Source: Octopus vulgaris (taxonomy: Eukaryota). Taken from it: a stretch of DNA of 64,000 bases. The DNA is taken from NCBI GenBank assembly GCA_951406725.2, contig OX597837.1, positions 37,696,001-37,760,000 of the forward strand. The letters are read 5' to 3'. This document shows positions 11,646 through 62,940 of the stretch, one piece after another. A program made the position numbers and the translations under genes. The stretch's first letter is position 1. Each line of letters opens with the position of its first letter. Under the pieces are notes generated by a model that saw nothing but the letters and a program-made list of their open reading frames with translations, was not told the origin of the DNA and searched no databases.

Positions 11646-13346
11646 AGAGAGAGTATACACAAACACAATGTTATAAATATATCCAGGTAAAAAACAAAAA
11701 AAACAAAACAGAAGAAAAAACATAACAACAACAAATTTCACACTTTTTATAAAATTTATTCAACTTCACAATAGGTAAATCAAATCGATTCATTAACTTA
11801 ACGAAGGTAATTTAAATAGTTTCCTTTCATTTTAGTCTTTTTTAAGACCAATTTTATAATAAATAATAAAAAAATTTTTTTGCCTTATTTATTTTCCTTA
11901 CTTATTTACATGAAGCACTTTCCACATGGATCTGGAAATTATTATTATTATTATCATCATCATCATCATCTTGTTAGTAAGTTGCCAGAATCATTAGAGC
12001 ATCCGACAGAATGCCTTGCTCTGTTTCTTTCCACTCTTCATGTCCTGGGTTCAAATCTCACTGAGGTGAACTCATCCATCCATTTTTTTCAGTGGTTGAT
12101 CATATAAAGCACGAGTCAAGCACTGCCAACGCCACCCCACCCCTGCCGCATAAAAAAGCTGGACCTTGGACATTTAAAAAATTATTCTGATTTGAAGGAA
12201 TGGAAGATGGTATAACATTCTTTCATATATATATATATGTGTGTGTGCACATACTTATATATATCTATAAATTTATATATATACACACACACATAAATAC
12301 ATATATAAACATACATATGCATATATTCATACACACACACACACATATATATACACACACATATACATACATATACATATGTATACATACATATATATAC
12401 ATACATATACATACACACATAAGTGTATATATATATATATATATACATACATATACACATACATACATATATATACATATACATACATATACATACATAT
12501 ACATACAAACATACATATACATACAAACATACATATACATACAAACATACATATACATACATATATATACATACACACACATACATACATATATATACAC
12601 ACACACACATATATATATACATATATATATACACATACATACATATATGTATATTTATTATACACACACACACAGAGAAATACTTCTATTTTTTATCTTT
12701 CTTAAGCCCTGAAATTCCTAAGGTCGTTTACTCAGTTTTCGTGGCAGACAAGTAATTGAGACCCCAGCAATCTCCCTAAATGGGACACCGGTTCACTGTA
12801 GGGTCCAAGGCGAGCAATTTCGAGGGGAAAGGGACAAGTCAATTACATCAACCGCAGTACTTGGCCGGTACTTTATTTAATCGGCCCCTGAAAGGAGGAT
12901 TTGAACTCAGAACGCAACAGGATTTGAACTCGGAACGCAAGAAGCTGAAACAAACGTGGCTCAGCATCTTTGCCCAAGGTGCTAATGATTCTGCCAGCTC
13001 ACCGCCTCGCATATAAATAAATACATTCACACACACATATATCTATCCATACACATATAAACACATACACTATACACACACACACACACATATATATATA
13101 CATAGATATATACATACATTTACGTACATGCATATATTTATAGCTAGATATAGATACAGCTATCTACGTATATATGCACACACACACACATAAATACACA
13201 CACATTCATTTACATACATAATACATACATACATATATACATACATACATACATATATATATATACTGTGTATATATGTATATATATATATATATATATA
13301 TATATATATATATATATACCTTATTTAAAGCAGCAGAAAATTCAAC

Positions 13347-13394
13347 AAAATCTGTTACTCTGAGTTTCTCATTGCCGTTCATCAGACAGTTTTT
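13347..13394 (-). ncRNA. Minimal hammerhead motif, mirror copy in the perfect palindrome
   Basis: Exact reverse complement of 13411..13458. Confidence 0.68.
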
Positions 13395-13410
13395 GCTAGA
13401 CAGTTCTAGC

Positions 13411-13458
13411 AAAAACTGTCTGATGAACGGCAATGAGAAACTCAGAGTAACAGATTTT
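13411..13458 (+). ncRNA. Minimal type I hammerhead ribozyme motif
   Basis: AAAAACUGU-CUGAUGA-ACG[GCAA]UGA-GAA-ACUC[A]GAGU-A^ACAGAUUUU. Stem I CUGU/ACAG, GNRA-capped stem II (first pair A/A mismatch), GUA triplet with predicted cut after 13449. Confidence 0.7.
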
Positions 13459-14527
13459 GTTGAATTTTCTGCTGCTTTAAATAAAGCATATTACTCTACC
13501 ACTGGTATTTGAGTACTCTTTTTTTCCACCTTGTTTCACATTTATGTGTTTACTCCGGTATATATATATATATATATATATATATATATATATATACATA
13601 TATACTAAATGAATAAATATTCAAAAATATTTATATAGATATTATTATTAATTATTATCATTAGTAAAATTAATAATAACCACAATAATTTAAGTGGCCA
13701 GGGAGCATAAGCTGATAATTGGCAAACCCCGAATTTTATAATTAATTTATAATTATAATAAGATACACGTTTATGCACACACACACACACACACACACAC
13801 ACACACACATGGACGATTACTTTTCTTTCGTCAATAAAAACCAAAAACAATAATAATAATAATAATAATAACAGTAATACTTTCCACTAGAGGCACAAGG
13901 CCTGCAATTTTGGAGAAAGAGACTAGACGATTTCATTAACCCTAGTTTATGACTGGTACTTATTTCATCGACCCTGAAAGGATGGAAAACAAAGCTGACC
14001 GTTGCAGAATTTGAACTCAGAACGCAGACAGAGGAAATGCCACTGAGTATTAGTACCACCTGCTAACTCGATGTCTTATAAAATGTTAATGATAATAATA
14101 ATAATAATAATAATAATAATAATAATCCTTTGTGAGGAGGGTTCAATGCCTTTGAATTTCCTGGTTGATTTTATTGTGTCGTTATCGAGTAAGTAAGCAA
14201 AAAAGGAAAATAAATATTAATTAGTCTGAATATTCGTTATGCAAGTTTCTTTAAAACTCCGAAATTAAGAAAAAACCAAATGTAAATGTTAAAAAATAAA
14301 TAAATAAATAAATAAAACGTTTTTTTAAATCCCAGGCTAGAAAAAAAAACAAAAAAAAAATCCAAAAAAAAACCAAACCCAACGTGTCATTGGGGGTTCC
14401 CCTTCCATTTTAATGAAGGGTGCCGCCTGCTTATGGAGCAATAATTCCAATAACAAAAAAAATTAAAGGGGTAGGATTCCCATGTCATTGAGGAGCGGAT
14501 GCGGAGTAGGAACGGCCCTGCTGGCGT

Positions 14528-14617
14528 TTACGTGATGACGGTGGGAGCAGAGCGTCCTGTCAGCTGGGGAAGCTGAGAAATCTTCAGAGCAATATCAATC
14601 AACGGCTTCAGAACAAC
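14528..14617 (-). CDS. PGM1: Phosphoglucomutase exon 10 (VVLKPLIDIAL...TGRSAPTVIT*)
   Basis: Acceptor CTTTTCTTTCCAG directly after a (TTA)n tract; TAA stop at 14528-14530. Confidence 0.94.
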   Translation of the reverse strand, partial: VVLKPLIDIALKISQLPQLTGRSAPTVIT

Positions 14618-61680: not shown

Positions 61681-61850
61681 TAGGTCCAAGTATGGCTGTG
61701 AAGATAAGAAGTTTCCTTCCCAACCATATGGTTTCAAGTTCAATTCCTCTGCATGGCACCTTTGGTAAAAAGCAGATTGACTCAGGACTTCAATACATTG
61801 TTTACATTATTTACATTTGACGGATATTTGCCCTCATCTTGTTTGTTGTT

Positions 61851-61896
61851 AACACAATGTTTCAGCTGATATACTCTCCAGCCTTCATCAGGTGTC
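61851..61896 (-). ncRNA. Minimal hammerhead motif (left arm of head-to-head SINE pair)
   Basis: GACAC-CUGAUGA-A-GGCUG...CAGCU-GAA-ACAU-U^GUGUU; same family as 32949. Confidence 0.62.
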
Positions 61897-62168
61897 TTGG
61901 GAAAATTTCAAACCTGGGTTCTCATTCCTAAGGTATTTTTCAATGTTATTATTATTTTTATTATTATTCAGGTCACTGCCTGGAATCGAATTCGGAATCT
62001 TGGGGTTAGTTAACCACTATGCCATATGCCCGTGGGTGTAGTGGTTAAGAGCATGGGCTACTAACCCCAAGACTCCGAGTTTGATTCAAGGCAGTGACTT
62101 GAATAATAATAATAATAACATCGAAAAATACCTTAGGAATGAGAACCCAGGTTCAAAATTCCCCCCAA

Positions 62169-62214
62169 GACACCTGATGAAGGCTGGAAGGTATATCAGC
62201 CGAAATGTTGTGTT
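62169..62214 (+). ncRNA. Minimal hammerhead motif (right arm of head-to-head SINE pair)
   Basis: GACAC-CUGAUGA-A-GGCUG[GAAGGUAUAU]CAGCC-GAA-AUGU-U^GUGUU. Confidence 0.68.
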
Positions 62215-62940
62215 AACAACAAACAAGATGAGGACAAATATCCATCAAATGTAAATAATGTAAATAATTCCTCATCTCTTGAATGTAGAACTGTCCCTTC
62301 AATATATTATACTATTATAGGATGGAACCAGTGGGAAAGGTAGACCCAGGAACACAATGAGATGAGGTGGTGAAGCATGATCTTCAGATGTCGGGCCTCA
62401 TGGAGGTGATGATATGTGACTGAGATCTTTGGTGCTTGAGAAGACTCGTCAAGCCAAGTAAAAATTGTAGTGGTGGCCATTGCCAGTTTTATGTAAATGG
62501 CATGTAAAAAGCACCCACTACATTCTTGGAGTGGTCGGCATTAGGAAGGGCATCCAGCTGTGGAAACCATGCCAAAGAAGACTGGAACCTGGTGCAGCTC
62601 TCCTGCTTGCCAGCTCTGGTCAAATTGTCTAAGCCAGTGGCTCCCAGACTTTTTTGGGCTGCCACCCCCTTGACACCCTTTCTGAAGCAAATTCAAACCA
62701 ACCGTATTTCACAAATAAAACTTAATCTCATGAACCCTTTATTTTGTTGTTTTTACATGAATCGCTACCCCATTATCTCCCCCCTTTTCTTCAACGCCCC
62801 CTTGGAACTTTCCACCTCCCTGTTACCTTAGGAATTTGTCCTTCTTGCAGTTAGAAAACATCATCTGCGGATCTCACTCTTCTTCCCTGCTACAAACTTC
62901 TGCAGGTTATGTAGATTGGCTGTTTGCAGGACTCCCCTAC

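Follow-up and report, generated by a model that had tools for sequence, protein, structure and literature searches.

Hammerhead-bearing repeats in an Octopus vulgaris genomic window very probably derive from the ends of coding Penelope-like elements

The window analysed here is a stretch of 64,000 nucleotides (nt) of Octopus vulgaris DNA (contig OX597837.1, positions 37,696,001–37,760,000) from a genome of 2.8 Gb in 227 contigs. It contains hammerhead ribozyme motifs in short repeats that we relate below to Penelope-like elements (PLEs). An initial annotation had claimed nine such motifs, and all nine were present, with core nucleotide C3 at 13385, 15968, 55793 and 61891 on the minus strand and at 13420, 32954, 33763, 47239 and 62174 on the plus strand. 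The descriptor used for the minimal type I hammerhead demanded the exact core, stems I and II, a self-complementary stem III and a score of at least 7, and allowed optional unpaired bases beside stem II (an extra nucleotide after A9 included) and inserts of up to 140 nt. Seven of the nine motifs reached this score with the core CUGANGA and GAAA, the NUH site and stems I and II of PLE minimal hammerheads, whereas 100 block-wise dinucleotide shuffles of the window gave 0.1 matches on average and one at most. The motifs at 15968 (G12 changed to A) and 55793 (2 bp of stem I left) are decayed copies, the relatives of which are intact elsewhere. The 33763 and 15968 motifs carry stem II inserts of 80–100 nt. 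A relaxed scan, giving six matches at a score of at least 6 versus 0.4 in 25 shuffles, revealed three plus-strand motifs that the initial annotation had overlooked: 47070, where C3 is altered, 51585, where the first stem II pair is disrupted, and 55440, where stem III is CpG-decayed.

Most of the motifs lie in short stubs. Family A is represented by an inverted arm at 13,320–13,403 on the minus strand, which ends at (TA)n and has its hammerhead at 13,352–13,389 (predicted cut after 13,356), and by a forward stub with a tail extension at 13,404–13,558 on the plus strand, with its hammerhead at 13,416–13,453 (predicted cut after 13,449). In the latter motif, stem III is ACUC-A-GAGU, and stem II consists of just 2 bp and a GCAA loop flanked by two unpaired A residues. 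The family B stub (15,734–16,597, minus strand) includes an inverted arm at 16,465–16,597 and the decayed hammerhead at 15,863–15,973. A short family C stub (32,897–33,049, plus strand) begins with a short inverted tail followed by a forward copy with the hammerhead at 32,949–32,994 (predicted cut after 32,989). The family D stub (33,691–34,087, plus strand) ends at (TA)n, and its hammerhead (33,759–33,885) has a 100-nt stem II region and the stem III ACAGCUGU; a D-related stub at 54,047–54,310 on the minus strand is cut off within the stem II insert and retains only the 3′ half of the motif. Two overlooked motifs belong to TA-flanked inverted-repeat stubs on the plus strand, one at 46,844–47,190 with a decayed hammerhead at 47,064–47,122 and the other at 51,199–51,985 with a hammerhead at 51,580–51,692, a 5-bp stem I and the stem III ACAU-G-AUGU. 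The third, a decayed family J hammerhead at 55,437–55,475 (plus strand), is located in the 3′ region behind a broken remnant of a GIY-YIG endonuclease at 54,851–55,105 on the same strand. The family K stub (55,663–55,875, minus strand) ends at (TA)n and has a hammerhead at 55,763–55,797 with the stem III ACGU and a stem I that is weakened in this copy. The second family C insertion comprises an inverted arm with a tRNA-like head at 61,797–62,036 on the minus strand (hammerhead 61,851–61,896) and a forward arm at 62,039–62,293 on the plus strand, in which the head is followed by (AAT)n, the hammerhead (62,169–62,214, predicted cut after 62,209) and the tail; the tRNA-like segment opening this arm spans 62,034–62,100 on the plus strand and is collinear from the D-arm to the T-arm with the genome's own tRNAs. 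Family G is a hammerhead-like motif at 47,233–47,275 on the plus strand, with the stem III AUGCAU, and is old and rare. The stubs of each family have two alternative 3′ ends, a short one on the inverted arm and a longer tail on the forward arm.

The frequency of the motifs was estimated from 60 stretches of 10 kb (600 kb) at hand-chosen round coordinates, that is, not from a random draw. In this sample 36 matches, spread over 25 of the 60 stretches, were found versus 0.9 in 20 shuffles, which gives a bootstrap range of 1.0–2.5 × 10^5 motifs for the whole genome, or 1.4 × 10^5 if one seven-copy array is counted once. The density of roughly one motif per 7 kb proposed previously is thus too high, as intact-looking motifs occur about once per 17 kb. 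Because the matches of the descriptor pair by construction, two tests were run in which one stem was left free. When only the core and the palindrome were required, stem I had at least three Watson–Crick pairs in 24 of 105 candidates (0.8 of 27.5 in the shuffles), and when only the core and stem I were required, a palindromic stem III was found in 16 of 26 (0.07 of 1.5). Moreover, 211 best matches from all loci collected by then, a biased set, formed 40 clusters whose stems differ in sequence and yet pair; G10.1–C11.1 was the commonest pair (18 of the 40 clusters), with G–U in 10 more. These tests and clusters bear out both the description of the motifs as minimal type I hammerheads with self-complementary stem III and the covariation of stems around a retained core across families.

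The insertion context was scored for 32 of the sample matches, four being too close to the end of their stretch. (TA)5 was present within 400 nt downstream in 24 of the 32, compared with 26% of random positions, and an inverted partial copy lay upstream in 15, in agreement with the inverted truncated arms of the window stubs and with the claim that such a copy often precedes the motif. The association with (TA)n, stated for the whole system, holds for most families; it does not apply to the motif at 47239 or to family C (32954, 61891 and 62174), whose flanks are non-TA and which shows an 8-nt duplication at 32,897–33,060.

Five of the six families reported initially are the ends of coding elements, since their longer copies run unbroken from the motif into an open reading frame (ORF) for reverse transcriptase (RT) and/or a GIY-YIG endonuclease. 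Including family J, a position behind the RT/GIY-YIG ORF, that is, in the pseudo-long terminal repeat (pLTR), was seen for A, B, C, D, J and K. With the clades taken from protein motifs rather than from an RT tree, 13420, 15968 and 33763 were assigned as Hydra-type, 55793 and 55440 as Neptune-type, and 32954, 61891 and 62174 as Poseidon-type. We consider it highly probable that the motifs are minimal hammerheads in the pLTRs of at least six coding PLE families from these three clades, and that the window retains short tail stubs of them, partly inverted and likely inactive.

For family A, 40 scored copies were 96–99% identical, ended at (TA)n and mostly had an inverted arm, and the longer ones had about 1 kb of upstream sequence in common. 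A piece of RT ORF beside one copy, used as a query, gave 150 scored matches, 56 of which lay in open frames of at least 718 amino acids according to our own count from the table. In one locus (L176) an ORF, a 1-kb 3′ untranslated region (UTR), the motif, the tail and the next ORF followed each other with a tandem spacing of 3.35 kb. The protein read from this frame has RWK, DKT, a CxCX5C linker and CxxC and CxH around E and N, and has no CCHH; family A was placed in the Hydra clade because these marks match section 11 of Craig et al. (2021; PMC8557442). Insertion into (TA)n, a trait of this clade, was likewise observed. The protein had no match in Pfam and was absent from an exact-match protein collection. 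An earlier assignment of the family A partner to Naiad was dropped on domain order. Judged by its sequence, family A is a young Hydra-type PLE. The other two Hydra-type families were also linked to ORFs. The alignment of two family D loci, L234 with L235, covers 4.1 kb and reaches from a Hydra-type ORF to the motif, and the CxCX5C linker, the Hydra-type endonuclease and DKT were all seen. Two family B loci (L258 and L265) have the endonuclease region, UTR and motif in common; the CxCX5C linker and the Hydra-type endonuclease could be read, but no RT was seen.

Of 14 incidental family A arms, 12 begin no more than 30 nt from the core, and inspection of the matches by eye showed no accumulation of 5′-ends at the predicted cut site. 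Family A copies, including solitary ones, often begin 14–17 nt before the core (13,404 in the window; L035, L037 and L042), and this start sequence resembles an RNA polymerase II initiator. In one subfamily (L131–L150), core U4 is replaced by C in 20 of 20 loci picked by upstream sequence, and stem II pairs over a longer distance. At L144 (827–1,213) an inverted arm joins a piece of Hydra ORF to the family A tail, a template jump inside one insertion. Four contig sets, guessed to be RNA, cover the family A pLTR and ORF, and some of them bridge tail and ORF; the contigs show no ends and nothing was concluded from them.

The Neptune-type families J and K have a CX2-5CxxC linker before a GIY-YIG domain with CCHH, the marks of that clade. 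The family J motif directly follows the broken GIY-YIG frame in the window and lies 180–350 nt after the ORF in 19 of 29 GIY-YIG loci, and full-length homologues of this family contain RT and GIY-YIG. Family K gave 4,756 candidates at first look. One locus (L328), which holds RT, CxxC linker and GIY-YIG, can be aligned with L327 across a CA-rich UTR as far as the motif, and with L329 and L331 in its ORF region. A pile-up of family K 5′-ends at −34 proved to be an artefact of a deletion in the reference copy. In three of the 29 family J loci (L050, L052 and L072) a family C copy lies antisense inside or at the edge of the ORF, which is above the expectation from family C density; the copy in L050 has a target duplication of approximately 10–12 nt, a case of PLEs nesting in PLEs. 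For family G only three copies were found, two of them degenerate.

Family C was at first taken for a free-standing short interspersed element (SINE), a reading dropped once its ORF was found. All 14 loci picked by the end of the Poseidon-type ORF run on, in the same sense, into the tRNA-like head, as do 18 of 20 further loci chosen in the same way. The upstream homology covers RT, thumb and GIY-YIG, and translations of broken natural copies show RT together with a GIY-YIG domain at the C-terminus and without a linker finger, the mark of Penelope/Poseidon. The head, 65–70 nt in length, begins about 35 nt after the stop codon and is collinear with tRNA from the D-arm to the T-arm. Eight heads compared with the genome's tRNA-Arg(TCG) had a mean score of 39.5, whereas shuffled heads had 15.7 (maximum 32 of 400); the comparison covered 25 distinct tRNA sequences of about six isotypes, one of them mis-oriented. 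No tRNA was called in the head by ARAGORN at default settings or by Rfam, and BLAST against phages and E. coli found nothing. Relaxed ARAGORN calls in seven of ten heads had no control and were set aside. The absence of T4 terminators from family C was likewise rejected as evidence (P 0.51 for the part between head and tail and 0.08–0.17 for the ORF parts); a control Hydra ORF was equally depleted. Among 45 arms from loci not chosen by ORF, 27 reach the head and 18 are shorter; 24 of the 27 stop between −20 and +20 of the head start and three extend further. This clustering of 5′-ends at the head is only suggestive, because the two arms of an inverted pair do not count as independent and join at local palindromes, and because ends also cluster in family A, which has no head. 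The tRNA-like stretch could let short family C copies be transcribed on their own, and an RNA polymerase III (Pol III)-driven, SINE-like cycle is possible. A bolder reading, which we hold conceivable but rather unlikely, is that a Poseidon-type PLE captured a tRNA-derived Pol III promoter in its pLTR, upstream of the hammerhead. An insertion keeping the last 270 nt would then be a ready-made, PLE-mobilised SINE, and in tandem units promoter and ribozyme would together make and trim the element RNA. If this is true, the origin of promoter-plus-hammerhead elements of the Sm-alpha kind would have been caught in the act.

The stubs may be explained by the way PLEs are copied. Full-length RNA would start in the upstream pLTR, a short way ahead of the hammerhead; the target would be nicked by the endonuclease of the element itself, and the RT would prime at the pLTR tail. 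An early stop, or priming at the upstream pLTR, would leave stubs that extend from where the pLTR starts as far as the tail, with the inverted arm added by another priming event; an early stop or upstream priming would account for the 5′-ends that cluster just before the motif in family A. Through its palindromic stem III, one motif may pair with another to form a slowly cleaving dimer (PMC4209133), a pairing that tandem units would permit. Copies that are alone or inverted would lack a partner in the same sense, and a transcript running through an inverted pair would hide the motif inside a long hairpin. Without such a partner the copies in the window are likely inert.

Further features of the window were noted. 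Motif-like matches at 4169, 28801, 31278 and 48863 were rejected, since they fall in a repeat that has terminal inverted repeats together with A-runs. Its four window copies (3,981–4,220, 31,134–31,318, 39,827–40,035 and 48,812–49,014) have short CCCTAA runs; it is probably a DNA-transposon derivative that mimics the hammerhead core by chance. A core-like motif at 35,047–35,090 (35056; see also region 9,701–9,847) has ACGU, a G at the cut position and one decayed relative of 70% identity. A possible, very decayed GIY-YIG remnant was read by eye at 54,460–54,820 on the minus strand, with no second copy among the loci collected. A phosphoglucomutase gene (Pfam PGM_PMM_I and II) has its exons in the region 18,800–38,390 on the minus strand, the 32954 and 33763 motifs lying antisense in its first intron, and an intronless 331-amino-acid frame on the plus strand (8,153–9,145) has a weak 7tm_1 match (E 0.005, below the cut-off). 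Outside the window, L236 (3,015–5,222) has a 736-amino-acid open frame with the look of tetratricopeptide repeats, unrelated to hammerheads.

Several points weigh against the origin of the motifs from PLE ends or against their activity. The ORF links of B, D and K come from two to four loci each, reached by upstream walking, none of the families B, C, J and K yielded a full-length copy, and family G and the 47070 and 51585 motifs were not traced to a parent element. Hammerhead activity is read from the sequence and dimer cleavage is a prediction; in family A, stem II is devoid of the usual G10.1–C11.1 pair, which makes activity doubtful even in young copies. Rfam gave no hammerhead family for the window among the 150 of 300 matches listed, which held only microsatellite-driven miRNA matches, and monomer folds of eight window motifs were no stabler than shuffles (z −1.9 to +0.3); both nulls are expected because the motifs are minimal, and neither lends support. 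Finally, clustered 5′-ends are unlike random truncation, and short units might have been re-copied on their own. On this view the short copies would for the most part propagate themselves as non-autonomous units, either solo pLTRs or retrozyme-like elements, with a promoter of their own and with the related PLE enzyme copying them in trans. This would suit the clustering in families A and C, the short C copy with a target duplication in the Neptune ORF of L050, and an ORF-less tandem array of 359-nt units with seven motifs at L076. However, these same sequences are the ends that coding elements naturally carry. Priming of the RT on the upstream pLTR of full-length RNA would produce clustering as well, and the arms do not count as independent, since in inverted pairs many of them join at a local palindrome. 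Moreover, the window copies are single or inverted, whereas retrozymes are defined as head-to-tail (10.64898/2026.07.22.740005), and an informal comparison disclosed no diagnostic change dividing short from ORF-linked copies, so that we regard predominant self-propagation as improbable. The separate, non-autonomous, retrozyme-like families envisaged initially must accordingly be largely given up, with room left for solo re-copying and for the L076 array; the proposed mobilisation by a Penelope RT/GIY-YIG enzyme holds as far as the tie between hammerheads and PLEs goes, but the motifs are the own ends of three PLE clades and not many passengers of one enzyme.

Two other explanations can be dealt with on the same evidence. 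Chance matches in AT-rich, repeat-rich DNA might be suspected, as the relaxed descriptor at its lowest threshold yields 2.9 matches per shuffled window, the family with terminal inverted repeats imitates the core through its A-runs, and monomer folding is unremarkable; yet the counts in the window (7 vs. 0.1) and in the sample (36 vs. 0.9), the leave-one-stem tests with the 40 differently paired clusters, and the fixed position behind PLE ORFs refute it, and its probability is practically nil. That the host keeps some copies as regulatory ribozymes is hardly more credible: the phosphoglucomutase intron harbours two motifs, but both are antisense to the gene, and the window copies are CpG-decayed and broken at core and stem positions as other copies are. 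Origin from the ends of coding PLEs remains the preferred explanation.

The hammerhead–PLE system has been known since 2014 (PMC4209133), a hammerhead-bearing Hydra element from octopus has been in the literature since 2021 (PMC8557442), and the PLEs described here are further members of this system, the tRNA-like segment in the family C tail being the sole oddity. What is added is a motif estimate on the 10^5 scale and about 40 or more covarying clusters in three clades, so that one genome offers a natural library for the rules of minimal hammerheads. With its dozens of open ORFs and its tandem pLTRs, the young Hydra-type element provides a practical handle on a clade known only from sequence in PMC8557442 and bears on the question of what PLE hammerheads do, while the tRNA-like pLTR segment may show the origin of SINEs served by Penelope enzymes. 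It is also a warning that short inverted repeats resembling SINEs or miniature inverted-repeat transposable elements in such genomes can be PLE ends. In the literature searched, mostly titles and listings, no PLE with a tRNA-like segment and no octopus hammerhead census were found. A term search of the main text of PMC13282606 found no mention of ribozymes; its supplements, Dfam and Repbase may hold these families.

The metazoan PLE pLTR hammerheads of Cervera and de la Pena (2014; PMC4209133) are, like those of the octopus, of type I with a short stem I and a palindromic stem III, include families with an extra nucleotide after A9, and occur as many solo truncated copies and opposite-strand pairs. 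In contrast to them, many octopus families have 40–100-nt stem II inserts and 8–11-nt stem III palindromes. The estimate of 1–2.5 × 10^5 motifs exceeds the approximately 2,000–9,000 of that study, in which Xenopus tropicalis reaches about 9,000 minimal motifs, the descriptors being different and the numbers not strictly comparable. Other published counts are over 6,000 for a coral, as many as 120,000 canonical motifs for the axolotl and about 38,500 for S. mansoni; by our estimate the octopus total is among the largest, with the same reservation about descriptors. PLE promoters sit in the pLTR and drive the downstream copy (PMC6765202), minimal motifs cleave weakly as dimers (PMC6765202, PMC4209133), and inverted truncated copies and one-sided tails are typical of PLE insertions (PMC8557442).

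The Hydra-type elements described here share with the Hydra clade, including Hydra-1_Obim (PMC8557442), RWK, DKT, the CxCX5C linker and the lack of CCHH, as well as (TA)n targets, a hammerhead with palindromic stem III, and an inverted copy and tail at one end. In the supplement, Hydra-1_Obim has a hammerhead and is listed with no pLTR, a coral-order Hydra entry has the same stem I and nearly the same stem III as family A, and five probe strings from the families described here were absent, indicating that A, B and D differ from Hydra-1_Obim. Family A further differs from it in being young, with many open ORFs and clear tandem pLTRs, and the Hydra-type families here have 3′ UTRs of 1–2 kb, unlike Hydra-1_Obim. 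J and K resemble the Neptune clade in the CxxC linker, the C-terminal GIY-YIG with CCHH and microsatellite targets. Family C is like Penelope/Poseidon in its C-terminal GIY-YIG with CCHH, the absence of a linker finger and non-TA targets, and unlike them in the tRNA-like segment between stop codon and hammerhead.

Retrozymes have no coding parent continuous with the unit, whereas five of the six reported families run into ORFs. Non-LTR retrozymes (PMC7229834; 10.64898/2026.07.22.740005) likewise have type I hammerheads in short repeats and are proposed to be PLE-derived, but they form head-to-tail arrays without ORFs, which no element of the window does. The TA-flanked array at L076 (2,097–4,768), with relatives at L240 and L206, is of this kind, although two of its seven identical hammerhead copies are inverted relative to the other five; it is a candidate for a real retrozyme-like element. 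The SINE-like elements Sm-alpha and Sj-alpha of Schistosoma (PMC6765202, PMC2770079) have a tRNA-related Pol III promoter followed by a hammerhead, an order of parts that family C recalls; they are tandem and non-coding with a canonical hammerhead, whereas in family C the parts, among them a minimal motif and a putative Pol III promoter, make up the 3′-end of a coding PLE.

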